A DNA stretch of 64,000 nt from a virus (taxonomy: Duplodnaviria; Caudoviricetes): the IMG/VR virus record IMGVR_UViG_3300028805_003982. One strand, given 5' to 3'. How positions within the stretch are numbered: the first letter of the stretch is position 1; each line of letters begins with the position of its first letter. Both the position numbers and the translations under genes were made by a program. Of this stretch, positions 8,151 through 55,311 are shown piece after piece. A model generated the notes under the pieces. The model worked only from the letters and a program-made list of their open reading frames with translations. It was not told the DNA's origin and made no database searches.

Positions 8151-8256
8151 GTTGTAGAACAATCGTAGGAATACAATTAGTAAAATTTGCTGTTATACTT
8201 AAATTGTCCCTATATAGTGTATCTTGACGGGACTTTTTTACGGAGGTCATTATTAA

Positions 8257-10464: not shown

Positions 10465-10465
10465 T

Positions 10466-10981: not shown

Positions 10982-11023
10982 ACAGGCAACTGAACCATTA
11001 ATAGTACATGCAATGTAAAATAA

Positions 11024-12514: not shown

Positions 12515-12529
12515 CAGGAGGTATTGAAG

Positions 12530-21527: not shown

Positions 21528-21955
21528 TGATTATGTGGATACGCATGAATGATAACTTTTACGATGTTAAGGTTAAGGTCACGACCTGCGAGAACGGCGG
21601 GCTTAATCTGGATTTGCATGAGAGGGGGACCGGCAGACTCATTTCCCGGCTCTCCAATAATTTTTGTGCGCTTGATAATCCCGGGTATTTTCTTCTGGAT
21701 TACAGTATAGCTTGGACTTTGACCGATATAGTGGAGTTTCTTTTTGATAACGACATCGCTATATATGCCGGGGCAAAAGTCGTGTCCAATACCGAAAGAG
21801 CCTACGTCTTCAGATGTAATCTCAGTCAGCTTTTGAAGTTTGACCGTGACGGTACAATGGCTTATATGGCCCGGCACCATATAGATAAGGCTCGACTTAC
21901 CCGGATAACGCGTGATTATTATGACGATCAGACCAATCTGGTGCTTGTAGTGTAA
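21527..21955 (+). CDS. DUF4313-like protein
   Basis: Weak resemblance (FL.DN.IA...G....F..NL..L...D.DG...Y) to the clostridial conjugative-element family. Confidence 0.4.
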   Translation: MIMWIRMNDNFYDVKVKVTTCENGGLNLDLHERGTGRLISRLSNNFCALDNPGYFLLDYSIAWTLTDIVEFLFDNDIAIYAGAKVVSNTERAYVFRCNLSQLLKFDRDGTMAYMARHHIDKARLTRITRDYYDDQTNLVLVV

Positions 21956-22023
21956 TATATTGAGGTCTAAATCTTAAAACCCCTGTCAAAATCTGTATAA
22001 AGAGATTTTAGGGGGTTTTTATT

Positions 22024-35673: not shown

Positions 35674-35917
35674 TACCTTCAGGAAAGAAATTAAAATTTT
35701 CTTTTTCAAATCATTTCCGTTATTTCCGCTTTACTGCGAGAAACCCGTTTTCGGGTGAAGTAGAATTAAACTGTCGATAAGTGTAAGAGACCTCCTGCCG
35801 AAGCGGGTGGGGAGAACACCCCAGACAATACAGTGCAATACATAATAATACAGACTGTCAAAGCACAGGACAGTATCATACGCTATGACAAAAACGTGAT
35901 ATTTTTTGATAAAGGTG

Positions 35918-35966
35918 CCGTATTTTCCTAGAGAAAGACGCTTTTCTTGTTTTTCGCTGTTATAGT
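35918..35966 (+). promoter_or_regulatory. Promoter with upstream CCGTRTTTTCCTA motif (copy A)
   Basis: CCGTATTTTCCTAGAGAAAGA starts 43 nt before the TGT-TATAGT -10. Confidence 0.65.
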
Positions 35967-36004
35967 ATAAAATAGCGTTTTAGGACGTGAGGCAGGATTA
36001 TCAG

Positions 36005-36036
36005 AGGATCTCGAAGTTTCGGGGTCCTTTTGTTTT
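36005..36036 (+). terminator. Leader terminator-like hairpin 1
   Basis: AGGATCTCGAA/TTCGGGGTCCT followed by TTTGTTTT. Confidence 0.65.
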
Positions 36037-36156
36037 GCTTGAACAATTAGAGATTACACACAGAAAGGAAGGATATTGATCATGTTACACCGGATAAGAG
36101 ACGGCCCAAGCGTGGCAGAACCAGTTAATTTTTACTGACACCCAATAAGACTAAAG

Positions 36157-36189
36157 AAGAAACGCCGGTCTAGAGGGTGTTTCTTTTTT
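36157..36189 (+). terminator. Leader terminator-like hairpin 2
   Basis: AAGAAACGCC/GGTGTTTCTT followed by T-run, about 45 nt before the adhesin start. Confidence 0.6.
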
Positions 36190-36233
36190 AATACCCGCAC
36201 AGCGGAAAATAAATCTAAAGGAGAAAAATCATT

Positions 36234-39200
36234 ATGAGTAAGAACTCAAAGAAAAAGTTTGTCAGCACGATGCTTGCTGCAAGCATGATCTTCTCCTCAA
36301 TACCTTTTACGGCATTGGCAGATGATGCTATCTCCGGCGGCGATAATGACGATGTTGTTATCGAGTCGCAGGTAGCAGAAGAGCCTGCCGTAACAGAACA
36401 GACTTTTGAGCCCGAGCCGATCCAGGCCGAGGAACCCGTTGAAGACAAGAACGTCGATAAGGTTCCCGAGGATGACGCGGAGCCTTCAGAAGTTGTTTCT
36501 GATGTTGAGGAAGAACCGCCCATCGAGGCAGAAGAAGGTAATGATGAGGAAACACCAGCTGCAACGGACACAGAAGTTGTAACAGAACCTACAGAGACTG
36601 CGGATAATCCGGCGGCTTCTGAGCCTGATACAACTAAGACTGCCGAAACTGAAGCAGCTTCTGAAAATGTTGTATTTGATCATTACTTTACAACTATTGA
36701 TACTTCACTTGTAAAGACAAAGGATCTTTTGGTTCAGACATCAGACCCTTCTGTATTCACATACAATACAAATGTTGTATCTAACTATGATGACGTATAT
36801 GTTATTTCTTGCGATTCTCTTAAAGAAGCAAGGTACGTGTTCTCTTATTATGTGGATAAGGTAAATAATATAACAGATATGTCGAATGTGTTTACTATCG
36901 CTTCAGAGTCGGATGATACTGCAGATCTGTCAGATCTTAATAATGGTACAGATGCAATTGCTGCTCTGAACGATATCAACGCAACAAATCACAGCGGTTA
37001 TATTGCTCTGATCGATACGGGTGCGAATGCAAACATCAATTATTCCGTAGTTGGTGATGATGTTTCTGATTCTAACGGTCATGGTACGGCAATGCTGAAC
37101 TATATCCGTGAAGAAAACCCTGCTGCAAGAGTGATCTCTATCAAGGTCTTTGATGGTAATAAGACAAATGCAGCAAACGTTTATGCAGGAATCAAACTTG
37201 CTATTGAATCTAAGGTTTCTATTATCAATCTGTCATTCGTAGGACCCGATGTAGAAAATAATGCCATCGTTAAGTCTGCTATTCAGGAAGCTTTGGATAA
37301 CAACATTAAAGTTGTTGGTGCGGCAGGTAATAACAATGGTAATGCCAAGAAGTATATTCCGGGTTGTGTTGAAGACGCTATCGTCGTAGGCGCAGTTAAC
37401 TCTGACGGCACAAAGTTCAGTTCTTCCAACTATAATGCTGATCTTTATGTTGTAGCTACTTCTTCGTCTGAAGCGGCAGCCAGATATACCGGTATGCTTT
37501 CAGGCAACTCTACAAACAACGACCGAGTATTTTCTACTCTGACATCTGGAGAAGTTCAGGATGCAGTAGCAGATACCGAGGGTGGCCGTGTTTTCTATGC
37601 TACATCTGACGATGATATTGATTGGAATAATCTTAAAGCCGGTGATGTAGTTTATCTGCCAGATTGTTATTATGTGATTAATGCGGTCAATGCGGACGGC
37701 ACTGTTGTTTTTATGCCTTATGCTCTTGACTATGACGAAGATAGTTTTGAATTGACCGCTCGTCACTATGGCGATCAGACAAAAACATCTTCCGCAAAGA
37801 CCATTACTCCCGGACAATCAGGTACTGATACAGGCACGGGGCATATCGGTTATAATGCGCATGGCTATGATAGTGTTACAAATCTTAAGTCGAACTCTTC
37901 CAGTAAGTACAAGCTGACAGACTGGTTCTCCAGTCTCGGTGCGGATTGTGAGTCCTTGTGGTTTGGGGATAGCGATTCTTCAAGACATGCTAAGTGCTTA
38001 TCTAATACAGATGTTAAGTATTCTGCTTCTTGGAAAACATACACAAACTCTAACGGTCTGCCTGAAATTAAGTTTACTGTCAGATTTACTGCCTCCAATG
38101 ATAATTTTAGTGCTAGAAATTGGGTTCACCATAAAATAACCTGGAAAGTTACCAAAGAACACTTAGGCAATAATGTTTATCAGTGGGATGCCTATATTTA
38201 TGATAACGGTACTCAAAAGTGGCACAAAGATTGGAGCGCGTACGACTCCACAAGTATCAATGATACGATCTGTTCGAGTATAAAAAGTTCCATCGCTTCA
38301 TACAAGGCTATCGGGGGTGATTGGACAGGTTATAAGTCTGTAAGCAGTGTATCAGTTCCGTCGGCAAAGACTATCGGTGATGCCACTACTACCAAGCCTG
38401 CTACCGGTACTTACCAGACTTATTATAAGTGCACCAATCCTATGCAGATCTATCGTGGTGTTGGGATTGTTAATATGCCTGGTCTTATGCTGTTCATGCA
38501 GAAGACGGCACCTTCATCAGATTATTCTGTATTAACAGACGATAGCACCTGCTATAGCTTTAAGGGTACTCAGTACAAGTTGTATACGGGATATGATTCA
38601 CATGAGGACAAGGCTACAGGAACCGTTCTTAAGACATTTACTCTTGATGCCCAGGGTCTCTCAGATGATCATTATACAGTTACGGAGTTCCCTTCCACCT
38701 TCTATATACAGGAGACTACAGCAGGTAAGGGGTTCTCGATCGATACACATGTCTATAAGGTGTATGTGCCCTCTGTTACCGGCTCTGTAGTTGTTACCGA
38801 TATGACTACTGAAGATCCTGATGACGTATGGCGTTATCCTTCTGACGGTACTTTAGTTCGTATGAAGTTTAAGGACTATCCGGTTACCGACCCTCTGGCT
38901 TTTGAGCTTAGAAAGATCAATGAGCAGGGGCAGATAACTGATGCTACGCTTTCAGATACAGAGTTTACTCTGGAATATTATGCACAGAACATCGCCTGGG
39001 ATAATAAGATTTCTGATTACGAGCCTACTGTCGTATATCATTTTACCCGCGCAGCTGGTGATAATTCACAGCTTAAACTTTCTGACTTTATGAATCTGCC
39101 GCCTGTCGGTGGTACAAACGGTGAGTATCTGCACGATCTTTATGAGGCAGATGTTTTGGATAATGAATATCAGTGGCCTCTCGGTACATATCTGATTTAC

Positions 39201-42200
39201 GAGAGCACACCGCCTGCCGGCTTTGCTTGTAATGAACAGATCCTTCGTATTAAGTTCTATCAGGTAAATAATGGCGATGACGTAGCTCGTATCATTCATA
39301 AGGTTGAGGACCGCGACGGAAATCAGATCGAAGGCGACGGTTATTTCTGGGATTACACGCTCGACCGTTCAGGTGACGAGTATAACCAGATCTTCATGAC
39401 TCTTGATGATAACGTTCTTACAGGACACTATCAGCTTACAAAGTCGATGAAGTCTGATGACGTTGTTAAGGATCTGGACGGCGTATTTACTTTTGAACTC
39501 GTTCAGGGTGATAAGCAGATCGCAACAGGTGTTTCTCAGGCAGACGGCAAGGTTCTTTGGACTTATACTCTTGAGGGCTTGAAGTCTGAGATCAACAGAG
39601 AAGCTCTTACGGGCACAACCGCGAACGTGCTTGAGCTCGCTGCTTATTGGGCAGACGGCTCTGCTATCGAGTATGAAGTAAGAGAAACTGTTCCTGCATA
39701 TCCTTATGGCGGAACTTCTAACATCTCTTATACTCAGAAAGCTCCTGAGGGCTGGACGTTAAGTGGTGACGGTACTTATTACTATCATACGTTTACCGTT
39801 ACAGAGGCTCAGACAGTGGATGCTCCTTACGAGGACACCATTGTTAATGACCTTGAGTCCTACTCTTTGAGCTTTGTAAAGAACATTCCCGCAGGCGACA
39901 GCTTTGACCGTACAAAGGTTGCTTTCCAGCTTATCTATACAGACACAAACACAGTTATCGCTAACGGTGTTGCAGATGCTACAGGTAACATTACTTGGAC
40001 AGCAGCTCACAATACAGGTTATGTTTGTGATACAAGTGTCGCAAGTCTGATCAAGGGTCTGCCCGGCGGTAACTACAAGGTCACAGAGACTTGGGATAAG
40101 ACTTATATCGCAACTCTTGACGATGATCAGGCAGAGCTTATCGAAGATAACTTGTCTGACGGTTGGGTAAAGGCTAACAGAAATGACGTTTACGAGTTTG
40201 GTTATACCTTTACTCTTGACGCGGACAAACAGATCTCCGGCGGCGAGGTCATCAATGACACTGTTGCTCAGTGGTTCAACATGACTAAGACGACTACGGT
40301 AGCAGGAGATGCTTCTACTGTTACGGTCGAACTTATCAATGCTGACGGCAATATCCTTGCAAGAGGTACTGCTGAAACAACAGCACAGCCCGGAACATTT
40401 AATGTTACTTGGGATTATGCAGGTAAGCACAAGGAAGTTAACGGTCTTGATACCATCGAGCTTCCTGCAGGCGATTATACTATAAGAGAATATCAGCCCG
40501 TTACTTACTACGATAACGGAAAGAACAATGTTCCTTATACCTATATGAAGCCTGAACTTAAGATCGGTGACGATACTCTTGGCGTTTTCGTTTCAGAGAA
40601 AGACGGTAAGGTAACATTTGAGTCTTCCGCATTCACTGTCGAGAACAATGAGACGGTAGTCCTCAACTCTACCGCTTCTAACACGCGTATCGAGGGTGAC
40701 CTTAGCATTATCAAGGTTGAAAGATCAGATGATACATCAACTGATAAGACTTTCAATCTGGAAATCTACTACAGAGGAAATGACTCTGAGGCGCATGACG
40801 TTGGCATGTTCCTTGAGAATTATCTCCTTGATACAATCACGATCACTACAAAGAACGGCGAAGGCACGGCAACACTTGGTAAGATCCCTGAGGGCTGGTA
40901 CGAAGTCCGTGAGATCGACAACGATGGTTGGACCGTAACTTGGGGCGGCGATGCCGCAACAAGTATCATTGGCGGTACTCCGACTAAGTTGTTCCATGTA
41001 GATTCAAAGGACAAGACAAATGCCGCACCCGTCGTAAATGATGGCGTAGAAGAGAACGGTACTCCTATCGACGGACTGCTTATCTATAACGATATCGCTC
41101 CTGAGATCGGTACAACCTTTACTGACAGTGCTACAAAGGATCATATCGCAGCTACAGACGTTGAAGCTAAACTGATCGATACTGTTGCTTATAAGAGAGT
41201 TCTTCCGGGCAGCTATAAGCTTTACGGTGTTCTTATGAACAAGGCAACAGGTGAACCTTTGGTAGATGCAGAAGGTGTTGAAGTTCGCGCTTCTACAGCA
41301 TTTACTATCCCTACGGTTGGCAATCTTGACAGATTTGGCAATCCCATGCCTGTAAGCGATACGGTTGACGTTGAGTTTATCCTTGATACAACTATGGTCA
41401 ATGGTCTCAAGGCAGTTGCCTTTGAGGAACTTTACGCAGTAGATGTTCACGGTGATGTAACAGGTCAGCCTGTTGCTGAACATGAAGACATTGATGATGT
41501 TGATCAGACAATGGATATCGGTGATGGTCAGACAACGCTTCTTGACGATGCAACCGGTACTCATACAACAGCTCTGGCAGAGAAGGTTTCTCTTACAGAC
41601 TATGTTGAGTTCAATCATCTGCTTCCTGGCAAGTCTTACACCATGACAGGTACTCTGATGGATAAGGCAACAGGAGAGCCTCTGAAGGATGCCGAGGGCA
41701 ACGAGATCACTGCTTCACAGCAGTTCTTGGCTGATCCTGATGATCCTAACCTTGAGAACGTCATCGTTGAGGACGGTTCATTCTCAGGTATGGTTAAGGT
41801 TACTTTCGAGATCGATACAACGATCCTTGTTAAGAAGACAACACACATCGTTGCCTTTGAGACTTGTACCGACGATGAGACCGGCGTAGCCGTAATCATC
41901 CACGCAGATCTTGAAGATGATGATCAGACAGTACGCGTTCCTACGGCGATCACAAAGGCTGAGTATCCTGACGGAGCAAAGACTGCCGTAAGAGTTCCTG
42001 ATCTCGTTCTTATCGACACCGTAACTTATACGGGTCTTGAACCCGGTCAGAGATACCGTATCGTTGCAACACTTATGGTTAAGGAAACGGGCGAGCCGCT
42101 TATGAACAACGGCGAGATCGTAAAGGTAACCGATGAGTTCGTTGCACCTGCATCTGACGGTGTTGAACCCGTTGAGATCACGTTTGACGCTACAGGCCTT

Positions 42201-42485
42201 AAGGTTACTGATCATGTCGTAGTCTTTGAGGAAGTTTATAACCTCTTTACAGGTAAGCAGGTAGATCCTGATACCGGAGATGAGACTGAGGTTGAGGAAC
42301 TTGTTCTTGTTGCAGAGCACAAGGATATCAACGATCAGGACCAGACAGTGGGCTTCATGGCTAAGACAGGCGACAGTCTGCACACACTTGCTTATATCAT
42401 CGGAACAGTAGTTTCAGTAGCAGGTCTTGCAGGACTGACAGTCTTTGTCATCAAGAGAAAGAAGAAGGGCACTGAAGAAGCCTGA
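36234..42485 (+). CDS. Giant sortase-anchored adhesin: S8 subtilase-like domain, SpaA/CnaB-like Ig domains, three VaFE (T-Q ester) repeats
   Basis: Signal peptide; IDTG/HGT/AAGN subtilase motifs; VAFE...H.D..D.DQT three times; C-terminal AKTGD, TM helix and basic tail. Confidence 0.85.
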   Translation: MSKNSKKKFVSTMLAASMIFSSIPFTALADDAISGGDNDDVVIESQVAEEPAVTEQTFEPEPIQAEEPVEDKNVDKVPEDDAEPSEVVSDVEEEPPIEAEEGNDEETPAATDTEVVTEPTETADNPAASEPDTTKTAETEAASENVVFDHYFTTIDTSLVKTKDLLVQTSDPSVFTYNTNVVSNYDDVYVISCDSLKEARYVFSYYVDKVNNITDMSNVFTIASESDDTADLSDLNNGTDAIAALNDINATNHSGYIALIDTGANANINYSVVGDDVSDSNGHGTAMLNYIREENPAARVISIKVFDGNKTNAANVYAGIKLAIESKVSIINLSFVGPDVENNAIVKSAIQEALDNNIKVVGAAGNNNGNAKKYIPGCVEDAIVVGAVNSDGTKFSSSNYNADLYVVATSSSEAAARYTGMLSGNSTNNDRVFSTLTSGEVQDAVADTEGGRVFYATSDDDIDWNNLKAGDVVYLPDCYYVINAVNADGTVVFMPYALDYDEDSFELTARHYGDQTKTSSAKTITPGQSGTDTGTGHIGYNAHGYDSVTNLKSNSSSKYKLTDWFSSLGADCESLWFGDSDSSRHAKCLSNTDVKYSASWKTYTNSNGLPEIKFTVRFTASNDNFSARNWVHHKITWKVTKEHLGNNVYQWDAYIYDNGTQKWHKDWSAYDSTSINDTICSSIKSSIASYKAIGGDWTGYKSVSSVSVPSAKTIGDATTTKPATGTYQTYYKCTNPMQIYRGVGIVNMPGLMLFMQKTAPSSDYSVLTDDSTCYSFKGTQYKLYTGYDSHEDKATGTVLKTFTLDAQGLSDDHYTVTEFPSTFYIQETTAGKGFSIDTHVYKVYVPSVTGSVVVTDMTTEDPDDVWRYPSDGTLVRMKFKDYPVTDPLAFELRKINEQGQITDATLSDTEFTLEYYAQNIAWDNKISDYEPTVVYHFTRAAGDNSQLKLSDFMNLPPVGGTNGEYLHDLYEADVLDNEYQWPLGTYLIYESTPPAGFACNEQILRIKFYQVNNGDDVARIIHKVEDRDGNQIEGDGYFWDYTLDRSGDEYNQIFMTLDDNVLTGHYQLTKSMKSDDVVKDLDGVFTFELVQGDKQIATGVSQADGKVLWTYTLEGLKSEINREALTGTTANVLELAAYWADGSAIEYEVRETVPAYPYGGTSNISYTQKAPEGWTLSGDGTYYYHTFTVTEAQTVDAPYEDTIVNDLESYSLSFVKNIPAGDSFDRTKVAFQLIYTDTNTVIANGVADATGNITWTAAHNTGYVCDTSVASLIKGLPGGNYKVTETWDKTYIATLDDDQAELIEDNLSDGWVKANRNDVYEFGYTFTLDADKQISGGEVINDTVAQWFNMTKTTTVAGDASTVTVELINADGNILARGTAETTAQPGTFNVTWDYAGKHKEVNGLDTIELPAGDYTIREYQPVTYYDNGKNNVPYTYMKPELKIGDDTLGVFVSEKDGKVTFESSAFTVENNETVVLNSTASNTRIEGDLSIIKVERSDDTSTDKTFNLEIYYRGNDSEAHDVGMFLENYLLDTITITTKNGEGTATLGKIPEGWYEVREIDNDGWTVTWGGDAATSIIGGTPTKLFHVDSKDKTNAAPVVNDGVEENGTPIDGLLIYNDIAPEIGTTFTDSATKDHIAATDVEAKLIDTVAYKRVLPGSYKLYGVLMNKATGEPLVDAEGVEVRASTAFTIPTVGNLDRFGNPMPVSDTVDVEFILDTTMVNGLKAVAFEELYAVDVHGDVTGQPVAEHEDIDDVDQTMDIGDGQTTLLDDATGTHTTALAEKVSLTDYVEFNHLLPGKSYTMTGTLMDKATGEPLKDAEGNEITASQQFLADPDDPNLENVIVEDGSFSGMVKVTFEIDTTILVKKTTHIVAFETCTDDETGVAVIIHADLEDDDQTVRVPTAITKAEYPDGAKTAVRVPDLVLIDTVTYTGLEPGQRYRIVATLMVKETGEPLMNNGEIVKVTDEFVAPASDGVEPVEITFDATGLKVTDHVVVFEEVYNLFTGKQVDPDTGDETEVEELVLVAEHKDINDQDQTVGFMAKTGDSLHTLAYIIGTVVSVAGLAGLTVFVIKRKKKGTEEA

Positions 42486-42602
42486 TTAGTTCTCTTTTTA
42501 ACTCGATAATCAGTTGAGTTTGCTCTTTAAAGCGTCTGCGGGCTGTAAAAGGCTCGCAGGCGTCATTAGAGAGTAAAACGGCTAAATCATCAGAAAGGAA
42601 GC

Positions 42603-43523
42603 ATGATGCGTAAAAAAGAATCAAAGATAAAAAGGTATATCAGTAATGTACTTATTGTATTGGCCGGGATATGTCTTGCTGTTGGCGCATACTTTAGCAT
42701 AAGGGGTTTGATCACGGACATCAAAGACTATAACGAAGTGGAAGCTGACAGAGAGGAACTTACTGACACATTCCATAAGACTGTTCCGCAGCCAAACGCT
42801 CAGGGCGGAGACCTGGATCTTCCGTACGATGAGTCAGAGGATCTTAAGCTTAAGTACGATACCATGAAGGCCATAAATCCTGATTATGCCTGCTGGCTCA
42901 AGATAAACGGGACCGGGCAGGAATACCCGGTTTGCGTTAACCTGGAAGGCTCTTCATATTATTACTTAAATCACAGTTTTAAAAGGAAGCCCTTGGGCGC
43001 CGGTTGTCTCTTTATCGATCCGGGATCTTCGGTCGATTGCGATAATCTTATAATATACGGACATCACATGAGAAACGGTACGATGTTCGGCAGCTTGGGT
43101 AAGTTCTTGAAAGAGGAATGGACCCGTGACGGCAATAACAGCCTTATCGAAGTATTTACGGAGACAGAGCACCGTTATTATGAAGTTGTTTGTGTATTAA
43201 CGGCAAGTGTTTATAAAATGCCTTTCAGCATTACCGGGTATACAGATCTTTCTGATTATAATGATAATGTTGCGTTTGGCAACCTGCTCCGTAAGCATTC
43301 ACAGATCAACATGGATTGGAAAATAGGTGACAACGGTTTTGAGCCTAATCCCAATCTGTTTACTCCGGGTGTGTATAAAGACCGGTTCTTAACACTTATT
43401 ACTTGTGAATATACACATCGTAACGGCAGGGAAGTAGTCATAGCAAGGGAGCTTTACAGACCGATGTGGACGGCGGAAGAAATGATGCAGTCTGCCGCGC
43501 AATCCGAGGCGATTTCTGAATAA
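42603..43523 (+). CDS. srtB: Class B sortase
   Basis: N-terminal TM; NPD...W, IYGHHM..G.MFG, LITC and GR motifs. Confidence 0.85.
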   Translation: MMRKKESKIKRYISNVLIVLAGICLAVGAYFSIRGLITDIKDYNEVEADREELTDTFHKTVPQPNAQGGDLDLPYDESEDLKLKYDTMKAINPDYACWLKINGTGQEYPVCVNLEGSSYYYLNHSFKRKPLGAGCLFIDPGSSVDCDNLIIYGHHMRNGTMFGSLGKFLKEEWTRDGNNSLIEVFTETEHRYYEVVCVLTASVYKMPFSITGYTDLSDYNDNVAFGNLLRKHSQINMDWKIGDNGFEPNPNLFTPGVYKDRFLTLITCEYTHRNGREVVIARELYRPMWTAEEMMQSAAQSEAISE

Positions 43524-43528
43524 AGGAG

Positions 43529-43577
43529 CCGTGTTTTCCTAATAAAAGATAACAAGGACGAAAAATGACGTTATAAT
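43529..43577 (+). promoter_or_regulatory. Promoter with upstream CCGTRTTTTCCTA motif (copy B), driving the large ncRNA
   Basis: CCGTGTTTTCCTAATAAAAGA starts 43 nt before TATAAT; boxA-like CTTTGAAAAC follows at about 43595. Confidence 0.65.
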
Positions 43578-43602
43578 AGTTGTACTCGATTGAACTTTGA
43601 AA

Positions 43603-44218
43603 ACCTAATAATCATCAGGATAGCAGTGCATACACGTTATCTCGGTGTAGAGGGGCTTATCACCCTGCCGAGACGCTGCCGGATCAGAAGAGAAGCTTTT
43701 AAGGATACTTTCCAGTTTCTCAAGCGTGCTGAACGTGAGCTTAGCACCTCGTCATAGCAATGGCGTTGGCAGGCGGCGGTATGTACTGTGTGATGTTGGC
43801 GTGAACTGCTGGTGGCCGATGTAATAGACGCCAGCTCGAAAGGCTGGAAGAATCCGAATGCCCTAAGGCCGGTAACCTTAGGCACCTTTCGGAAATACCA
43901 AACAAGTCGGTTTGCCGTGAGACTGCGGAAACGCAGAGTATAACATCAGCAGGCTTCGTAAGTAGCCCAAGGCAGCAAGAACTTCAGATAATGATATTAC
44001 ATTTGCGAAATGTGATAGGAATTTTTCTGAATGATATGGGTGAAAGCTGGGGGTATCAATCCCTTACAGGCTCGGGCGATATCAGCCTGCGCAAGAAGGA
44101 CGGTGTAGCTGACCGTTTCTCAGACTTGCGTACCTGTCGGCGCGATAAACCGTAGCACAGATAGTATGCTGAACAAAAGGCAAGCGTGTGTGTACTGTTA
44201 TCCTGATGGTTGTCGGGT
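43603..44218 (+). ncRNA. Large structured ncRNA, probable ROOL RNA
   Basis: 27-bp terminal helix 43610-43636/44185-44211 (Watson-Crick plus G-U); many internal hairpins and GNRA loops; no credible ORF; own promoter and terminator; short motifs match my recollection of ROOL. Confidence 0.75.
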
Positions 44219-44324
44219 GGTATAATATACTGAAAACGAAAGACGGCCAAGGCTCTGAAAAACCAAAATAATTATGAATAGCCTTAAAGCGAATTGCGTG
44301 CACAAGGTCGTTTTAGTTGATATT

Positions 44325-44362
44325 ACAGACTCCGAAAGATCTTCTTTTGGGGTCTGTTTTTT
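44325..44362 (+). terminator. Intrinsic terminator after the ncRNA locus
   Basis: ACAGACTCCGAAAGA/TCTTTTGGGGTCTGT followed by T-run. Confidence 0.8.
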
Positions 44363-44403
44363 ATTTGGGGTTAATTACGGCCACGGAAAGGAAGGGGATA
44401 GGA

Positions 44404-45072
44404 GTGAGCAGCGATTTTGCGAGAATAAGAGCAGAGGTGCTTCAAGACGTTGAGCTGAATCCGGATTATTATGAACTGTTGTCGGATCGGGCAGATATGA
44501 TAGAGTTCATAGATAAGACAGATGGGATATTTGATTATCATTATGTTATTACAGATACGGATGTAATAACCCCGGATTGGCTGAAAAGCAAGACTTTGGT
44601 TACTCCGGATGCCCGGGAGTTATTTAGAACAGATCTGTCGAACCTCTTTGAACTGGTGGATAAATACATCCCTAAAGAAGCATATCAGACATTGCAGGAA
44701 TTGATATTTATCACTAATTCGGATGCGGATTATGAATATCTCTATAATGATAGCGAACTTTATATCAGGAAATTACTGGAAGAACATGCCTTGCCGGATG
44801 AGGAACAATTGGGTTTGTCTTGGACCGCAGAAGGGGTAGTTATCATTAATCTGGGGAAGATCGAGACTTCAGTCAAAGAGATGACAGAGGAAGGGGCTTT
44901 CGGTTCTACTCTGGAACGGGTTGTGTTGGATACCATTGCACACGAGTTCAGACATCTTCAGCAAACTAATCCGTATGTATCACAAGAGATCAAAGACACG
45001 TTCCTCGATGACATAGAGATAGATGCAGAGGTGTTTGCAAGAAATATCAACTATGGGGAGTTGGGATTATAG
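44404..45072 (+). CDS. Acidic HEXXH zincin-like protein
   Basis: TIAHEFRH..Q and downstream E.DAE.FA; GTG start at 44404. Confidence 0.55.
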   Translation: MSSDFARIRAEVLQDVELNPDYYELLSDRADMIEFIDKTDGIFDYHYVITDTDVITPDWLKSKTLVTPDARELFRTDLSNLFELVDKYIPKEAYQTLQELIFITNSDADYEYLYNDSELYIRKLLEEHALPDEEQLGLSWTAEGVVIINLGKIETSVKEMTEEGAFGSTLERVVLDTIAHEFRHLQQTNPYVSQEIKDTFLDDIEIDAEVFARNINYGELGL

Positions 45073-45101
45073 AAACATCAAGAGAAAGCTGAGGTGTAAA
45101 T

Positions 45102-45344
45102 ATGAATCAGTTTGGACTTTATTTTATTGATACCAAGGAGTTTGTCAGCTGTGGCAGTTATGCACAGGCGTTTAAGATGTATCTGGACGTTCTATATAAG
45201 GCTATCGATGAAAGTTTCCTGTTGCCGGATAACGTGGGAATAGCGTATTTCGTTCCTGAGCGTAACAGAATAGAACAAGTTGATATGCTTGGACGTGTGA
45301 CAAGATCCGTTCTCATATCCAAGGAAGAGATCACGTTCAGTTGA
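45102..45344 (+). CDS. Hypothetical protein
   Basis: GAGGT RBS. Confidence 0.5.
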   Translation: MNQFGLYFIDTKEFVSCGSYAQAFKMYLDVLYKAIDESFLLPDNVGIAYFVPERNRIEQVDMLGRVTRSVLISKEEITFS

Positions 45345-45434
45345 AGGCTTTTGGCAATATGCTACAAAAACTGATTAAATGTCTTGGGATTTTTGTGCTA
45401 TAATACCTACGAGAAATACTATAGGTATAACAAG

Positions 45435-45662
45435 ATGAGTCCTGAAGATTATTTAGAGAAGTTTAGAATGCTTGCCAATCAAAAGGCTTTTATATGTCCG
45501 TCCACAGATCCGCTGTTGGCGGAGTCTTTGTGTGAAGAATGGAATGAAACCGTTATGCAGGCAACAAAGGCGGGGCTGGCTCATAGCGAGATACGCAAGA
45601 TATGGGAAGAAACGTCCTTTATAAAAGGTTCTCTTTTAGGGATTGACCGGAAATCCATGTAA
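45435..45662 (+). CDS. Small hypothetical protein, paralog of 57842..58051
   Basis: Shared WNET..A.K.GL.....IWE motif. Confidence 0.5.
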   Translation: MSPEDYLEKFRMLANQKAFICPSTDPLLAESLCEEWNETVMQATKAGLAHSEIRKIWEETSFIKGSLLGIDRKSM

Positions 45663-45669
45663 AAAGGTT

Positions 45670-45718
45670 CCGTATTTTCCTAGAGATAGACACATTATTA
45701 ATTTTCTGCTGTTATATT
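45670..45718 (+). promoter_or_regulatory. Promoter with upstream CCGTRTTTTCCTA motif (copy C)
   Basis: CCGTATTTTCCTAGAGATAGA starts 43 nt before the TGT-TATATT -10. Confidence 0.65.
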
Positions 45719-45792
45719 ATAAAGTGTTACTATGCTACATGATTCCCAACGAAGCAGATGTAGATGTAGTGGAATACTCCTTTTTAATTGAT

Positions 45793-45823
45793 GGTCGGTG
45801 CCGGAAACGGCATCGATCTTTTT
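45793..45823 (+). terminator. Terminator-like hairpin in the ung leader
   Basis: GGTCGGTGCCG-GAAA-CGGCATCGATC followed by TTTTT. Confidence 0.7.
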
Positions 45824-45841
45824 ATGTTGAAGGGACAACGT

Positions 45842-46489
45842 ATGGATTGGTATGAGTTTGACAGTTTGGAAAGACAAAAAGAGTATTTTCCAGAGTTGCA
45901 GGCTGCTGTTGATTCCGAATACGGGCAGCACCTTTGCTATCCTTTAAGGGAAAATATCTATAATGCCTTTAAATTAACACCTGTTAGCAGTATCCGATGT
46001 GTGATACTTGGACAAGACCCGTATCACGGGCCGGGGCAGGCGACCGGATTGGCTTTTTCGGTTCCGCATAGTTTCCCGTTGCCGCCGTCTCTTCGTAACA
46101 TCTATAAAGAGATAGAAGCGGATACAGGTAAAAAGACGGTGAATCCTGACGGGTGCCTTGAACCCTGGGCCTCTCAGGGTGTATTGCTCTTGAATTCATC
46201 TTTGTCGGTCAGGGCACACGAACCCGGGTCTCATGCAGATCTGGGGTGGGGGACCTATACCGATAATTTCATTAAGATGCTGGGCGCCTTGGACCAAGAT
46301 ATCGTCTATATGTTATGGGGTAAGTTCGCAAGGAGTAAAAAGCAGCTTATAACAAACAAAAGGCAGTTGATCCTGGAAGCGCCTCACCCGTCTCTGTTTT
46401 CGGCAAACCGGGGATTTTTCGGATGCGGGCATTTCAGTAAATGTAATGAATATCTTGAATCAAAAGGTCAGAACAAAATAATCTGGTAA
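45842..46489 (+). CDS. ung: Uracil-DNA glycosylase (family 1)
   Basis: GQDPYH, GLAFSV, PPSL.NI, GVLLLN, LWG and HPS motifs. Confidence 0.92.
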   Translation: MDWYEFDSLERQKEYFPELQAAVDSEYGQHLCYPLRENIYNAFKLTPVSSIRCVILGQDPYHGPGQATGLAFSVPHSFPLPPSLRNIYKEIEADTGKKTVNPDGCLEPWASQGVLLLNSSLSVRAHEPGSHADLGWGTYTDNFIKMLGALDQDIVYMLWGKFARSKKQLITNKRQLILEAPHPSLFSANRGFFGCGHFSKCNEYLESKGQNKIIW

Positions 46490-46944: not shown

Positions 46945-48225
46945 ATGCACAAATTCAAGAACTTTCTCGGCATACTGTGTGCTGTTGCATTGATGGCAGG
47001 CTCAGTATTCAGCGTATCTGCAGCCGAGATAGGAGAGGGCACCGCTGAGACCAATGATACGGAGATCCTGATCCCCAAGAGCATCAATGTCACAAATCCG
47101 GAGGACATTGAGGTTTGGACACCTGCGATCACGTATTCATATGAGATCAGAGGTGTTGAGAGCAGATTGGGTTCTACGGTAACTGATACGGAAGGCCGCA
47201 GGGTATCCGTAAGGCCTGGACCTGATGGCGGTGCAGTGTTGCCCACGGGCGTTGTTGAGTTTGACTCACAGAAGGTCATGGCAAACACTGCTGCCAACGA
47301 AGTTGAGGATAATCTTGTGGTTAATGTCGATCTCAGCAAGTTTGAACAGCCAGGCATTTATCGTTATGAGATCAAGGACGTAACAGACTTGGGTCTTCTC
47401 CGGGCAGCAGGTATCGAAAGAGCCGAAGATTATGATCTTATCAGATATCTTGATGTTTATATCATCAGGGATCAGGATACGGGAAATCTTAAGGTTTCCG
47501 GCTACGCTTTGACTAACGGATATGTACTCGATCCCGAGCATACGGGGTACCCGGTAATATCCATTGAAGCATGGGAGACCGACAAATCTTCAGGTTATGT
47601 ACCACGGTCAGAGATCTTTGACGACTATACGTATGATATCGACGGCACCGCACAGATGACCGATACGTATGATACGTATAACGTTAAGATTACTAAGCAG
47701 GTTACAGGCGATATGGGTGACACGTCTCACGAGTTCCCCTTCGTAGTTGATGTAACCGGACAGGATGAGATCAAGTACAGCCACGGTAAGTGCGCAGCAG
47801 ATCAGGCAGATCCTGACATTACAGAAGATACTAATACAGATTCCATCAGCACAACGATGAAGAACACCGAGTATTACGTACTTCAGGGATTGTCCCCTCT
47901 GGCCACGGTTGCTGTTGAAGAGACCAACGACACTTATGACGGTTATACAGTAACGGTAACTGACAAGGACGGAACTGAAGTAGTCCCCGCAACAGACGCT
48001 GTGGCCTTTAACGGCACGGTTAAAGTTGATGCCTTCCAGGTATCAGACTACGAAACTCCGGATGTTGAGGCTTCTGCAAATGCCAAAGACGAGCTTACAT
48101 ACGACAATCATCTGGACAACGTATCTCCTACAGGCGTTATCCTTGCGTCAATGCCTTTCGTAGGCTTGGCAGGTGTTGGCGGCACGATGCTCGTTTTGGG
48201 CAAGAGAAAGAAAAAGGAAGACTAA
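46945..48225 (+). CDS. Backbone pilin (FCT/Spy0128-like, class B sortase substrate)
   Basis: Signal peptide; F..PG.YRY.I; K.V.G..GD...F; C-terminal VSPTG, TM helix and basic tail. Confidence 0.8.
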   Translation: MHKFKNFLGILCAVALMAGSVFSVSAAEIGEGTAETNDTEILIPKSINVTNPEDIEVWTPAITYSYEIRGVESRLGSTVTDTEGRRVSVRPGPDGGAVLPTGVVEFDSQKVMANTAANEVEDNLVVNVDLSKFEQPGIYRYEIKDVTDLGLLRAAGIERAEDYDLIRYLDVYIIRDQDTGNLKVSGYALTNGYVLDPEHTGYPVISIEAWETDKSSGYVPRSEIFDDYTYDIDGTAQMTDTYDTYNVKITKQVTGDMGDTSHEFPFVVDVTGQDEIKYSHGKCAADQADPDITEDTNTDSISTTMKNTEYYVLQGLSPLATVAVEETNDTYDGYTVTVTDKDGTEVVPATDAVAFNGTVKVDAFQVSDYETPDVEASANAKDELTYDNHLDNVSPTGVILASMPFVGLAGVGGTMLVLGKRKKKED

Positions 48226-48228
48226 GTT

Positions 48229-48798
48229 ATGAGCGATGAACTTACGGGAGCTACAACTGATATGACAGAGGTTAACGCCCCCGGTAAGTGGAAGACCTTC
48301 TGGTCGTCCTGGGCAGATGAAATAAAGCGGTTAGTCCGCAATGTTTTTGTCGTCCTTGTCGGGCTCTGGATTATGTTCGGCTTTATAGTAGGAATCGGCA
48401 GGGTCGGTTCAGTCGAGATGTCCCCGACCGTGGGCTTGGGCGATATCGTAATGTATTCCAGACTCGACAAGGCACCCCGGACAAATGAGGTAATCGTTTT
48501 TGATATGGAAGCCTCCGAATGTATTGGCCGCGTAATCGCCGGACCCGGTGATAAGGTAGACATTTCCGAGCAAGGTCAGCTGTTCGTGAACGGCCATCTT
48601 GTTCAAGAGAGCAGGATCACAGATCCCACATATCCGTATCCTGAATATGTTTCGTATCCTTTAACTGTAGCTCCTGACAACTATTTTGTTTTGGGGGATA
48701 ACAGGAAGTCCGGTGTGGACAGCAGATATTACGGAACGGTTCCGAAAGACCAGATCAAGGGAACACTTATAACACTTATCAGGCACAACAATTTTTAA
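48229..48798 (+). CDS. SipA/LepA-like signal peptidase homolog (catalytically inactive pilus chaperone)
   Basis: S26 fold (GDNR..DSRY.G); catalytic Ser replaced by Glu (VEMSP) and Lys by Gly (IGRV). Confidence 0.8.
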   Translation: MSDELTGATTDMTEVNAPGKWKTFWSSWADEIKRLVRNVFVVLVGLWIMFGFIVGIGRVGSVEMSPTVGLGDIVMYSRLDKAPRTNEVIVFDMEASECIGRVIAGPGDKVDISEQGQLFVNGHLVQESRITDPTYPYPEYVSYPLTVAPDNYFVLGDNRKSGVDSRYYGTVPKDQIKGTLITLIRHNNF

Positions 48799-48819
48799 GG
48801 TTAGAGAAAGGGAACAAAC

Positions 48820-49953
48820 ATGTCCTTAGCAGCATTTTTCAAATTGAGTAATCTTGCGACCAACGCGCTCGCTACAGTAACAGCGGTATCCGTTATCGGA
48901 TTCTCCGGTTATATGGTGTACGACAACTACATGGCGCAGAATAAGGCTTATGGATATGATCTGTTATCTTATAAACCGTCTGTCGAAGAAAATACCATCT
49001 CAATGCAGGAGTTGTATGATCTGAACCCGGATATTTGCGGCTGGATCACGATCGATGATACACATATAGATTATCCGATAGTTCATTCTGACGATGATCT
49101 GTACTATGTAAACAGAGACGCGACAGGTCAGCCTTCACTTACGGGTTCCATCTATCTGCAGGCTAAAAATGAATCGGATTTTACGGATTCTTACAATCTT
49201 TTGTATGGCCATCATGTTGACGGCGGCGCAATGTTCGGGGATCTTTCCCTGTTCCGTGACGCCGACTTCTTTAAGAAACATACTGAAGGTACTCTGATCA
49301 CTTTGAATAAAGCGTATTCCATAGATATCATTGCTTGCGTCAGCACTAATGCTTACTGTAAGTGCGTGTATGACAGGACTAAGCTTGACAAGGCTTCATA
49401 CGAAGAGCTTATTGCAGACCCTGAAGTCTTTGTAATGAATCAGAATGCCCGCAGTTTGGATTCGGCAGTCAAGTATCTTGCTCTTTCAACCTGTTACGGT
49501 GTTTCGACTGACGGAAGAACCGTTGTCATCTGTAAGATCACTGAGATCCCTGTTCCGGTCGATCCGCCCAAGCCTGATCCTAAGCCTCCGAAGGTCGTTA
49601 AGACCGGTGAGACATACCAGGTAGGCTGGGGCATTATCAACGTAGCAGCAGTCTTTATGACTTTGCTTACTGCGGTTCCTTATCTTAAGTTCTTTAAGGA
49701 CGATAAGAAGAAGATATACGCAAGGCTCGGTTTTGCGGCAAGCATCGTAGCTACTATATCCGCGGCACTCGTATTCTTTAGGGTGGAGGAACTGTCCGGA
49801 GCAATGATGATAACAGACAGATTTACTTTCATTTTCCTTTTGTTCTTCGGAGTTGCATTACTCGCAGAAGAACTGATAACCAAGGTTTACACAAAAAAGA
49901 ACAAAAATAAAGGCATTTCCATTAAGGAGGAAAAAAGATCATGGGAAGTTTAA
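48820..49953 (+). CDS. srtB: Class B sortase with C-terminal multi-TM extension
   Basis: NPD..GW, LYGHH, LSTC and GR motifs; Pro linker, VKTGE and about 3 TM helices. Confidence 0.8.
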   Translation: MSLAAFFKLSNLATNALATVTAVSVIGFSGYMVYDNYMAQNKAYGYDLLSYKPSVEENTISMQELYDLNPDICGWITIDDTHIDYPIVHSDDDLYYVNRDATGQPSLTGSIYLQAKNESDFTDSYNLLYGHHVDGGAMFGDLSLFRDADFFKKHTEGTLITLNKAYSIDIIACVSTNAYCKCVYDRTKLDKASYEELIADPEVFVMNQNARSLDSAVKYLALSTCYGVSTDGRTVVICKITEIPVPVDPPKPDPKPPKVVKTGETYQVGWGIINVAAVFMTLLTAVPYLKFFKDDKKKIYARLGFAASIVATISAALVFFRVEELSGAMMITDRFTFIFLLFFGVALLAEELITKVYTKKNKNKGISIKEEKRSWEV

Positions 49954-51230
49954 AACTTAAGAGAGTGGCAACCCCTATTCTTGCAGCGGCCATTATGGCC
50001 AGTATGGCTTCGGTTTCATTTGCCGCAGACATTGGTGCGAACGGTATCGTTGAAACGTCGGATACGGCTATCAACATTCCTAAGTCGGTGACACTGTATA
50101 ACGACGGATTTAACAAGTCCTATCTCCCGGCTATCACATTCAATTTCACCATCGCTCCTGCGACATTGACCGAAGAGGTACACATTACTGACTCTAACGG
50201 TCATACCGTTGCAGTGCAGTCCGGTCCTGCAAATTCCATTTCCAATCCTACTGCAACCGCAGTATTTGAGGAACAGGAAGTCGTTGATACAGGTGCTACT
50301 CTTGACGAGACAGTAAGGAAGAACATGACTTGGAATGTTGATCTTACCAAGTTTACAAAGCCCGGTGTTTACCGTTATACGATCACTGACGTAACACCTA
50401 TCTCTACTTTGTATGCTGCAGGCCTTGAGAGACCTTCGACATACGATACGACAAGAGAACTTGATGTTTATATCAAGAGGGATGCTACTACAGGTAATCT
50501 CGTAGTTGGCGGATATACTCTCCACGATGACATCACCGGTGATATCACTCCCGCAACCGAGAAGGACCCCGGCTTCGTGCCTGAGAGCTTCAACCCCGGT
50601 AACATTTCTAACGGATATGATACTTATACCACATATAACTATCAGGTTCAGAAGAACATTACCGGTGAAATGGCTGATCTGAGTCACAAGTTCCCGTTCG
50701 CAATATCTTTGAACGACGGCGGTTCCGTTGCAGGTCTTGACTATTACGGAGCAGCAGGTAACGCAACTCCTGCATACAGTAATGCAGCAACGATTAACAC
50801 AACCCTTGGAAACAGTGATGTTTACCACGTTTACGCTCTTAATCCCAAGGCTTCTGTAAGTGTTGTCGAGACTAATGATACAAATGATTCATACGATCTT
50901 TATGTAACTACTGTTAATGCTTCCGGCAGTTCAACAGATGCTCAGGCTGAAGCGCTTGCCGCAGGTGCTGCATCAACAGCCAGAACAGGTAACGTATCAA
51001 CATACGCTACAGCCAATTCAGCGTCCAACGTATCAGGCGAAGCTCAGGCCGATCTGCAGTCCAACGGTTTCAGAAATGACCTTCCCGGCATCATCACAAC
51101 TGGCGTTGTACTGAAGTCTCTTCCTTTCGTAGCTCTTGCAGGTATCGGCGGTCTTATGTTTGCACTTTCCAGAAAGAGCAAGAAGAACAAGGTAGCAGAA
51201 GATATTCAGGGCGATTCTTCTGAGATGTAA
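49941..51230 (+). CDS. Backbone pilin paralog
   Basis: Paralog of 46945 (IPKS, FTKPG.YRY.I.DVT, ETNDT.D); C-terminal ITTG, TM helix and basic tail. Confidence 0.8.
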   Translation: MGSLKLKRVATPILAAAIMASMASVSFAADIGANGIVETSDTAINIPKSVTLYNDGFNKSYLPAITFNFTIAPATLTEEVHITDSNGHTVAVQSGPANSISNPTATAVFEEQEVVDTGATLDETVRKNMTWNVDLTKFTKPGVYRYTITDVTPISTLYAAGLERPSTYDTTRELDVYIKRDATTGNLVVGGYTLHDDITGDITPATEKDPGFVPESFNPGNISNGYDTYTTYNYQVQKNITGEMADLSHKFPFAISLNDGGSVAGLDYYGAAGNATPAYSNAATINTTLGNSDVYHVYALNPKASVSVVETNDTNDSYDLYVTTVNASGSSTDAQAEALAAGAASTARTGNVSTYATANSASNVSGEAQADLQSNGFRNDLPGIITTGVVLKSLPFVALAGIGGLMFALSRKSKKNKVAEDIQGDSSEM

Positions 51231-51271
51231 TTCAAAAAATAAATTAAAAAGGGGTTTAACAAGGTAACTTT

Positions 51272-51784
51272 ATGAAAGAAAAAATAATGGCGTTTTTCAA
51301 AAAATATGATGCACTTCCGCGTATATTCCTGAAACTGGCCATTTTCGCAACGCTTCTTTATATCGCATTCGGGTTCATAATAGGTGTTTCTATTATGAAC
51401 TCGGACGATATGAAGCCTAATGTCAAATTAAGGGACATAGTTGTTTATTCAAGGATAGATAAAGATTACCTGAACAGAACGGCCGTCGTGTACGAGGTTA
51501 ACAATAACACGTTGGTCGGAAGAATCGTAGCTTTACCCGGCAGCCATGTGATCATTGATGAAAAAGGCAATGTTAACGTAGACGGTATTACGATCCAGGA
51601 AAGCGAAGTTTATATGAGTAAAAAGCAGGAAGGGTTCTCAACGGACGTAACATTAGGTCCTGATGAGTATTTCATTCTTGCAGACAACAGGCAGGTCGGT
51701 ATCGACAGCAGATACGTAGGGCCTGTCAGTAGCAGCGCTATCAAGGGAGAAACCTTAATAATAATAAGAAGGTATGGTATATGA
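51272..51784 (+). CDS. SipA/LepA-like inactive signal peptidase homolog
   Basis: DDMKP (Ser to Asp), VGRI (Lys to Gly), DNR...DSRY.G. Confidence 0.8.
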   Translation: MKEKIMAFFKKYDALPRIFLKLAIFATLLYIAFGFIIGVSIMNSDDMKPNVKLRDIVVYSRIDKDYLNRTAVVYEVNNNTLVGRIVALPGSHVIIDEKGNVNVDGITIQESEVYMSKKQEGFSTDVTLGPDEYFILADNRQVGIDSRYVGPVSSSAIKGETLIIIRRYGI

Positions 51785-52890
51785 ACAAGGGACAGAAAGC
51801 TCTTGGTGTTACGGACAATGTTATCACAAAGATGCTTAGGATCTGTTCTGTTATCCTCTTGATAGGCTCCTGCTATATGTTCTTTGACGTTTACTTCCTC
51901 AATAAGGGGGCTTCATCTGAGGTTGTGGCAGAACGCTATAAACCTGAGATCACCGTTTCTGATGAAGGAAAGAGGATAGTTGACATGACCGAGCTTAAAC
52001 AGATCAACCCCGATATCAAGGGTTGGCTTACGATGGATGATACAGGAATAGACTATCCGGTTCTTCAGGGCGATGACGATTATGAGTACTTAAACCGTGA
52101 CATGTACGGTAATTCCTGTCTTACAGGTTCGCTGTACTTCAGGTCGATAGATACTACCGAGAACGCAGATGCCGACTACCGTATGATCTACGGGCATCAC
52201 ATGGACGCGAGTTCCATGTTTGGCTGTCTCGATAAGTACATTGACGCAGAATACTTCAGCAGCCATAAGACAGGTACGCTCATAACCGATCATGGTATCT
52301 GGAATCTTGAGGCAGTTGCCGTACTTTATACGCACGCGTATAACAACACTTTTTATTACGGCAGGTCTTTTCCATGTATCGTCAGGGGCTTGGAAACTAA
52401 GCATATTCAGACGATCAGCGGAAACCTAAGTGAAGCAGATGCTCCTATCCTGATCTTATCGACTTGTTATGAGATCAAGCCGAACGGCAGGCTTCTTGTT
52501 GTCCTTAAGATGACGCCTGCTGAAGACGTGGTAGTTGACAGCGGTTCTGCTACTGATGAAGACATTTCGATCAAAGACCTGAGAATGGGTCAGATCCAAG
52601 AGGGGGTAAAACCTACATGGAGTGTAATGAATATTGTCTTCGTATTTATTACAGTCCTGTGTAGTATCACGATGACTGTTGACGCTGCTTTAAGAAAACA
52701 GCTTAAGCAGGTTGACGGCGTTGTTTGGGCGTTGATCACGCCACTTTCGATAGTTTTGTTCTTTGTAGGGCAGAAATTATCTGGAAGGGGGACTTTTGTT
52801 GATAAGTATACGATTGTTTTTGCCGGAATAGCGATCGCGGCTTCCGCACTTGCTGCGTATACTGTCAAACGGAAAGGAAAAGCGATATGA
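51781..52890 (+). CDS. srtB: Class B sortase with C-terminal multi-TM extension
   Basis: NPD..GW, IYGHHM, LSTC and GR motifs; C-terminal TM helices. Confidence 0.8.
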   Translation: MNKGQKALGVTDNVITKMLRICSVILLIGSCYMFFDVYFLNKGASSEVVAERYKPEITVSDEGKRIVDMTELKQINPDIKGWLTMDDTGIDYPVLQGDDDYEYLNRDMYGNSCLTGSLYFRSIDTTENADADYRMIYGHHMDASSMFGCLDKYIDAEYFSSHKTGTLITDHGIWNLEAVAVLYTHAYNNTFYYGRSFPCIVRGLETKHIQTISGNLSEADAPILILSTCYEIKPNGRLLVVLKMTPAEDVVVDSGSATDEDISIKDLRMGQIQEGVKPTWSVMNIVFVFITVLCSITMTVDAALRKQLKQVDGVVWALITPLSIVLFFVGQKLSGRGTFVDKYTIVFAGIAIAASALAAYTVKRKGKAI

Positions 52891-55295: not shown

Positions 55296-55311
55296 GAAAC
55301 GAGGTTTTAAG

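Follow-up and report, generated by a model that had tools for sequence, protein, structure and literature searches.

The 834-bp stretch at positions 43529 to 44362 of a 64,000-nucleotide DNA segment (IMG/VR virus record IMGVR_UViG_3300028805_003982; the whole segment is referred to here as the window) falls within a region that very probably holds a functional gene for a ROOL-family RNA, located at 43617-44201 on the plus strand and carried by a large plasmid-like or integrative and conjugative element (ICE)-like element of a rumen Clostridia bacterium. Searching the 64-kb window against Rfam 15 with cmscan returned ROOL (RF03087) at 43617-44201 (+) with a score of 241.4 bits (E = 1e-53), compared to the Rfam gathering score of 99.1 bits for this family. 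The match was full length, covering model positions 1 to 574 of 574 with no truncation, and no other Rfam family was above threshold in the window. GOLLD (RF02032), the other RNA that the initial annotation of this DNA had put forward for comparison, gave no match at gathering over the window, nor any with an E value of ≤1 over 35600-46000. The ROOL label that the initial annotation had attached to the region, from size and short motifs, was therefore correct, because RF03087 was the sole above-threshold match and ran from end to end of the model. The match spans 585 nt, or 606 nt when the full closing helix is included; the mean length of the ROOL family is 581 nt. There are 880 bp between the stop codon of a sortase gene (43523) and the next plausible start codon (GTG at 44404), and no open reading frame (ORF) longer than 82 aa was found in this gap on either strand, which bears out the earlier description of it as lacking credible coding sequence. 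Every motif that had been named was also present where it had been placed. The observation is thus confirmed, and its reading as a ROOL is supported. The RNA is a divergent new member of a known family: every membership test that was run placed it there, and it departs from other ROOLs only in its genomic context, which does not define the family.

Few bacterial non-coding RNAs are larger than ROOL, which forms a cage made of RNA only. The family was described from rumen data, in prophages and near tRNAs and also in regions outside prophages (Weinberg et al. 2017). The first ROOL studied experimentally was a long non-coding RNA on a megaplasmid of Lactobacillus (Ligilactobacillus) salivarius (Cousin et al. 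2017; PMC5643018), where it matched 16S rRNA in abundance but was dispensable, and where its deletion lowered the copy number of the megaplasmid (PMC5643018). Protein-free octameric cages were resolved by cryo-electron microscopy (cryo-EM) for the env-120 ROOL from cow rumen (Kretsch et al., Nature 2025) and for the ROOLs of Enterococcus faecalis and Firmicutes CAG:227 (Ling et al., Nature 2025). The ROOL of the window is like these solved RNAs in its full-length model match, its length of ∼585 nt, its helices and invariant motifs, its long closing helix, and its variable linker. It is also like known ROOLs in its rumen origin, its carriage on a mobile element, and its presence in RNA libraries, but unlike them it has no adjacent tRNA or phage genes, is preceded by a boxA-like leader, and shares a promoter box with other units. 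GOLLD is likewise a large ornate RNA of mobile elements that forms an RNA-only cage, but its sequence and fold are unrelated and it forms a 14-mer.

The fold of the RNA is closed by a long helix, designated P1. Positions 43610-43636 and 44185-44211 pair at all 27 positions (23 Watson-Crick and 4 G·U pairs), exactly as had been annotated, including the statement that all of the non-Watson-Crick pairs are G-U. The helix proved to be even longer, gaining two pairs at each end to reach 31 bp (43608-43638 with 44183-44213). P1 also closes the minimum-free-energy (MFE) fold, which has a predicted energy of −241 kcal/mol and a z score of −7.3 versus shuffled sequences. When the Rfam ROOL consensus was mapped to the window, 127 of the 151 ungapped pairs were canonical, and the largest non-canonical block, at 44088-44133, which accounts for most of the remaining pairs, showed perfect pairing after a one-base register shift. 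The four hairpins singled out in the initial annotation (TCTCGG/CCGAGA, CAGCTC..GGCTG, CCTAAGG/CCTTAGG, and CAGGCT/AGCCTG) all correspond to helices of the Rfam ROOL consensus. The long-range pairing that it had suggested between TATCACCC and GGGCGATA was rejected as unsupported; one of its pairs is an A·C mismatch, a local consensus hairpin already takes up its ACCC half, and most homologues lack the second hairpin.

The composition of these helices is relevant to whether the structure might act as DNA, for example, as a single-strand origin, an oriT, or a single-strand promoter of a conjugative element. The ROOL lies within a same-strand block of conjugative-type genes (ArdC, TopB, and a primase-like protein), which would suit such a role. 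However, the four G·U pairs of P1 are A·C mismatches on the minus strand, and the helix is therefore specific to the plus strand; P1 and many of the inner helices use G·U pairs that are mismatched in DNA and on the opposite strand. In addition, RNA structures have been solved for the family that is matched here, and contigs from RNA libraries cover exactly the ROOL stretch. Thus, a DNA-level function seems extremely improbable.

Covariation was evaluated by projecting the consensus structure on a sequence-only alignment of 22 ROOLs, an approach in which several helices are under-counted. The proportion of paired cells was 57.9%, compared to 38 to 43% when the partners were slid, and 88 pairs changed on both sides, versus 56 to 71 with slid partners. 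None of 500 shuffles reached the observed pairing and covariation values. Covariation in homologs, the absence of which had been named as a reason to give up the RNA assignment, was accordingly found above both the shuffled and the slid controls, and the ROOL helices are kept here through compensatory changes.

The alignment contained 62 invariant columns, which are kept in the window's copy by definition, as it is one of the 22 sequences. The invariant motifs include AATAG, AAGTAGCCC, TTCTGAATG, GGGTGAAA, and CTCAGAC. The internal linker (43971-44022), which is followed by the invariant TTCTGAATG..GGGTGAAAG, could not be aligned among the 22 ROOLs, and the motifs on both sides of it are invariant. 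On homology to the solved ROOLs (Kretsch et al. 2025), in which this part is disordered, the linker would sit inside the cage. In the 3′ hairpin at 44101-44116, the loop has a self-complementary AGCU here and GUCGCU, GUAGCU, or GUCGAC in other ROOLs; the AGCU loop would fit a symmetric kissing loop like that described for L18.

Searching with a pattern built from the invariant ROOL motifs yielded 22 contigs from IMG/VR and 7 from genomes, the latter belonging to Streptococcus species, a Clostridia metagenome-assembled genome (MAG), and an Erysipelotrichia MAG. When the pattern was extended with a clade bias and applied in one metagenome scan, it added a single tRNA-rich contig (L030) that was no closer to the window's copy than the others were. 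ROOL was confirmed by cmscan on all 30 retrieved contigs, with scores of 175 to 363 bits. The window's ROOL was 42 to 48% identical to the 29 others that were scored (L030 was aligned and not scored), and its GC content was 0.50 compared to 0.33 to 0.46 in all 30 others. By these sequence measures it is a divergent, GC-rich member of the family. The gap-free P1 of 31 bp was the longest of the set (8 to 30 bp in the others), but it is not different in kind, as gap-free closing helices of 19 to 30 bp are common in the family. The extra hairpin at 44067-44089 is kept here and is missing from most of the retrieved homologues. At least 8 of the 30 other loci have tRNAs within a few kilobases of the ROOL. 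In three phage contigs (L004, 2294-2938; L006, 5234-5878; and L017, 10725-11369), a tRNA starts at the last base of the ROOL match, so that ROOL and tRNA must be made as one precursor in these phages, in contrast to the tRNA-less tail of the window's ROOL. No match was found when the 834-bp stretch and the region at 18633-23085 were compared by blastn to the plasmids of PLSDB and the phages of INPHARED, and among 120 sampled Clostridia genomes, ROOL was found only in the centre genome.

The DNA of the window is present in sheep-gut runs, its probable source, and in goat-gut runs, and parts of the stretch also occur in 11 metatranscriptome runs of five studies. Alignment to 42900-45300 of contigs assembled from RNA libraries of three independent ruminant-gut studies gave matches at 43674-44184, 43639-44153, and 43627-44181, the last with a word depth of 295. 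ROOL RNA is therefore present in the ruminant-gut metatranscriptomes of several studies. The RNA contigs covered none of the sortase gene, the 5′ leader, the 3′ tail, or the downstream ORF, which is not evidence of silence, because holes in contigs prove nothing. Contigs of two studies ended at 44181 and 44184 without loose ends, whereas the DNA contig runs on, which hints weakly at a 3′ end of the stable RNA close to the closing helix instead of the terminator. Five variants were detected in the RNA runs, and all of them fit the ROOL fold: 43677 T>C turns a G·U into a G-C pair, 43831 C>T turns a C-G into a U-G pair, and the other three fall at unpaired or wobble-tolerant sites or keep the pair.

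Selection on the RNA was apparent from a 35-kb goat-gut DNA contig that spans the whole 2.4 kb, with 28 differing positions listed. There was 1 difference in the 585 nt of the ROOL core and 27 in the 1,816 nt of the flanks (binomial P = 0.004), which indicates much stronger constraint on the core than on the neighbouring coding sequence. Within the sortase gene, 11 of the 13 differences were at third codon positions. The presence in RNA libraries of several ruminant studies, together with this stronger constraint than on adjacent genes, indicates that the ROOL is in use.

It could be argued instead that the locus is a decaying or non-functional ROOL, left behind by past recombination of a phage or plasmid. 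The score of 241 bits is on the low side compared to those of the 30 other ROOLs, the surroundings contain no tRNA or phage genes, and a syntenic relative without ROOL exists (see below). Such a history is difficult to reconcile with the full-length model match and intact invariant motifs, with the appearance of the RNA in libraries of three studies at up to 295× word depth, and with a single difference in 585 nt where the flanks differ by ∼1.5%. We regard a relic as very improbable, and both it and the DNA-level explanation are already disfavoured relative to a functional ROOL gene.

The features of the locus are listed in the table. The initial annotation had assigned the RNA its own promoter, boxA-like leader, and terminator. 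Promoter and terminator were recovered by scans, as the TATAAT/ATAACA pair and the 15-pair hairpin with its T-run; TATAAT was the best promoter-like site of the region, and the hairpin was the only terminator-like site. From the position of the −10 element, we infer that transcription would start near 43584.

Table. Features of the ROOL locus and of the promoters that share its upstream box (positions in the window)
Feature	Position	Strand	Evidence or description
29-bp upstream promoter box AAAGGnnCCGTnTTTTCCTAnnnAnAGA	43522-43550	+	Ends where a −35 element would lie
Putative −10 element TATAAT, preceded by GT	43572-43577	+	Promoter scan, 10/12 matches, ATAACA 17 nt upstream
boxA-like CTTTGAAAAC	43595-43604	+	In the ∼24-nt 5′ leader
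P1 closing helix, 5′ strand	43608-43638	+	Pairing, MFE fold, Rfam consensus
ROOL RNA core	43617-44201	+	Full-length RF03087 match; RNA contigs of 3 studies; 1 difference in 585 nt versus goat-gut variant
Variable internal linker	43971-44022	+	Aligned to unstructured loop of the Rfam model
P1 closing helix, 3′ strand	44183-44213	+	Pairing
3′ tail between P1 and terminator	44214-44324	+	Moderately structured (fold z = −2.9)
Predicted intrinsic terminator	44325-44363	+	Terminator scan, 15-pair stem, 3-nt loop, T-run; same hairpin in MFE fold
Sister box promoter A	35911-36030	+	Leader of ∼60 nt, terminator 36003-36030, then gene for 2083-aa TQ-ester adhesin
Box copy of the ROOL unit	From 43522	+	ROOL as non-coding part, terminator 44325-44357, then 222-aa ORF
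Sister box promoter C	45663-45818	+	Leader of ∼95 nt, terminator 45793-45818, then UDG-family gene (start 45842)

The boxA-like leader stood up only in part. The motif is present, but it amounts to a resemblance over 9 to 10 nt that is polymorphic (the goat-gut variant has 43596 T>A inside it), and it was absent from the upstream sequences of 28 other ROOLs. The string gave no results in a literature search. The CTTTGAAAA core occurred 185 nt upstream of the 16S genes in 4 of 4 cases in one sampled Clostridia genome and in 0 of 4 in another. On this evidence, the leader can be called boxA-like by resemblance only. The leaders of rRNA operons combine antitermination at a conserved boxA, to which NusB/NusE bind, with a stem that is processed by RNase III. 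The ROOL unit is like such a leader in having a strong predicted promoter, the boxA-like CTTTGAAAA, a long helix that joins the two flanking sequences of a highly structured stable RNA, and a terminator downstream, but the boxA resemblance comes down to one 9- to 10-nt motif.

No Rfam family and, with ARAGORN, no tRNA was detected in the 3′ tail. A His_leader candidate at 44260-44362 (27 bits versus a threshold of 49) was rejected and taken as the terminator hairpin. An extended −10-like string, TGGTATAAT, lies at 44218-44226, right after P1 and ∼100 nt before the terminator, and could start a short RNA from the ROOL tail.

The box upstream of the ROOL promoter occurs three times in the window (35911, 43522, and 45663), always on the plus strand and always between genes. 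Its core, CCGTNTTTTCCTA, has 3 occurrences compared to 0.35 expected, and none of 100 shuffles reached 3. The three copies share 30 invariant positions and a fixed distance to a −10 sequence of the form GTTATAnT, and no −35 element is conserved in the three promoters. The box pattern had no matches in IMG/VR and none in the 39 fetched loci. The sister boxes seem to form a promoter class particular to the element, in which the leaders are attenuated or antiterminated. As a tentative proposal, more doubtful than probable, the ROOL could belong to an element-specific regulon in which the box replaces the −35 element at the three promoters heading the adhesin, ROOL, and UDG/pilus units, and in which the box may be read by a sigma-70-family protein. 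If so, the ROOL would be switched on together with the mating or establishment functions of the element, and this would offer a first regulatory handle on the role of the ROOL cage, for example, in protecting or establishing the element in a new host. A candidate for reading the box promoters is a 338-aa sigma-70-family protein, the gene for which lies ∼3 kb upstream of the window.

The layout of the three units can also be read in another way, in which the ROOL acts mainly in cis as a leader whose terminator read-through controls the genes from 44404, the stable RNA being a by-product. All three box promoters share the order of box, −10 element, non-coding RNA, intrinsic terminator, and coding gene, with the gene within ∼25 to 50 nt of the terminator (∼200 nt for copy A). 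However, phage ROOLs precede tRNAs or unrelated genes and work as free, cage-assembling RNAs, and the 600-nt RNA is conserved approximately ten-fold better than its flanks, far beyond what an attenuator needs. Furthermore, there is no conserved downstream partner: the 222-aa ORF at 44404-45072, directly after the ROOL terminator, had no homologue but itself in 5.8 billion proteins. This ORF also matched no Pfam or PHROG family and gave no useful Atlas lead; it has an HEFRH sequence (HExxH, zincin-like) near its C terminus and ends in ...GELGL. A function mainly in cis is thus unlikely, and we favour a ROOL that works as a free RNA.

A natural ROOL-less backbone was found in a Logan contig of 128,850 bp (L034). 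Its region at 966-12897 has genes in the order TQ adhesin, sortase, UDG, Metallophos, and GIY-YIG, with a sortase-UDG spacing of only 178 bp. L034 lacks the ROOL, the box promoters, and the pilus modules, and no Rfam family at all was detected in the contigs of five sortase relatives, L034 among them. The absence of both ROOL and box from a syntenic relative indicates that the ROOL cassette (43522-45662) is accessory to the backbone, and it sets up a comparison of the backbone with and without this cassette. The box common to the ROOL, adhesin, and UDG/pilus units and this ROOL-less relative are the most useful leads to come from the locus, as the basis of a regulatory hypothesis.

A functional ROOL gene at this site would operate as follows. 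The RNA would be transcribed as its own unit from the 29-bp box and TATAAT, with a start near 43584, and transcription would terminate at the hairpin at 44325-44357 to yield a primary transcript of ∼780 nt, of which the leader would make up 24 nt and the tail ∼150 nt. Trimming of leader and tail as far as the 31-bp closing helix would then give a stable RNA of ∼600 nt (43608-44213). By analogy with the three cryo-EM ROOLs, the RNA would form a hollow, protein-free octameric cage of ∼28 nm, with the linker (∼43971-44022) inside. In the weakest step of the scheme, the cage would act in trans for the element as an abundant stoichiometric binder of, or compartment for, a host macromolecule. A trans-acting cage might help the maintenance or establishment of the element, which would echo the drop in copy number in L. 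salivarius. The window's ROOL is like the L. salivarius megaplasmid RNA in residing on a large plasmid instead of a phage, in having been found as RNA, and in occurring in only some elements. It is unlike that system, which belongs to the Bacilli, in its probable Clostridia host, its adhesin, sortase, and pilus neighbours, and its repeated promoter box.

Several points weigh against the interpretation of the locus as a functional ROOL gene. To our knowledge, the function is known for no ROOL. The lack of ROOL in L034 means that it is dispensable for that backbone. The divergence of the window's copy (≤48% identity, GC of 0.50) makes multimerisation by homology less certain, and the structural comparison was made without the pseudoknots described by Weinberg et al. 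or the inter-subunit kissing loops and A-minor contacts of the cryo-EM cages, as the Rfam consensus line carries no pseudoknots. The RNA-library contigs give no transcript starts, ends, strand, or level; such libraries can also contain DNA. In L. salivarius, deletion of the ROOL had only mild effects, and strains without the RNA keep their megaplasmids (PMC5643018).

The initial annotation had called the genomic context of the ROOL unusual. The adhesin, sortase, and pilus neighbours and the lack of nearby tRNAs (none in the 64-kb window) were as described, but non-prophage and megaplasmid ROOLs are already on record. Phage structural genes were not found among ∼60 ORFs scanned with Pfam, 20 of which were also scanned with PHROGs. 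The phage or prophage and tRNA-island context that is typical of ROOL, although not defining, is thus absent here. A GC-rich ROOL on a plasmid- or ICE-like element of rumen Clostridia without neighbouring tRNAs indicates that linkage to tRNAs is not obligatory. A plasmid-borne ROOL has a precedent in L. salivarius. Nothing known is overturned by this locus; the result is a solid annotation with a modest lead.

Genes identified in the window with Pfam and PHROGs encode HipA-like kinases, a PARP-like ADP-ribosyltransferase, TopB, an SNF2 helicase, an Mrr-like nuclease, a DUF3991-Toprim primase-like protein, ArdC, a radical SAM enzyme and methyltransferase, and a zeta toxin. Genes for surface proteins include the 2083-aa TQ-ester adhesin with a class B sortase (42603-43523), MucBP adhesins, and two pilin/S26 peptidase/sortase modules, and a GIY-YIG protein is also present. 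The neighbours (ArdC, TopB, the primase-like protein, the TQ adhesin, and sortase pili) are typical of conjugative elements, and their best hits point to a rumen Clostridia host. The ENA gene table of the 234,910-bp source contig lists, within 10 kb upstream of the window, PcfJ, an AAA ATPase, a tyrosine integrase, a Tn916-Xis-like protein, a helix-turn-helix (HTH) regulator, and the sigma-70-family protein; the genes from PcfJ to sigma-70 head the long plus-strand gene block. Plasmid matches of TopB were mostly on conjugative plasmids, the best being on the megaplasmid of Ruminococcus albus 7 (46% identity), on which no ROOL was found. On this megaplasmid, pRUMAL01 (L033), a ribonuclease III domain protein is annotated beside the topoisomerase gene (76931-78451).

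Two other parts of the window are distinctive. The same-strand block at 4015-35673 is rich in genes of counter-defence or addiction type, with two HipA-like kinases, the PARP-like ADP-ribosyltransferase, ArdC, the Mrr-like nuclease, the radical SAM enzyme and methyltransferase, DUF3990, the zeta toxin, and a JAB-like protein. Downstream of the ROOL, two consecutive modules of pilin (DUF7601), S26 signal-peptidase-like protein, and sortase (46945-52890) precede two large surface proteins of MucBP or InlB-repeat type (52887-57855), and the region from 46945 to 57855 has an FCT-type pilus layout on a mobile element.

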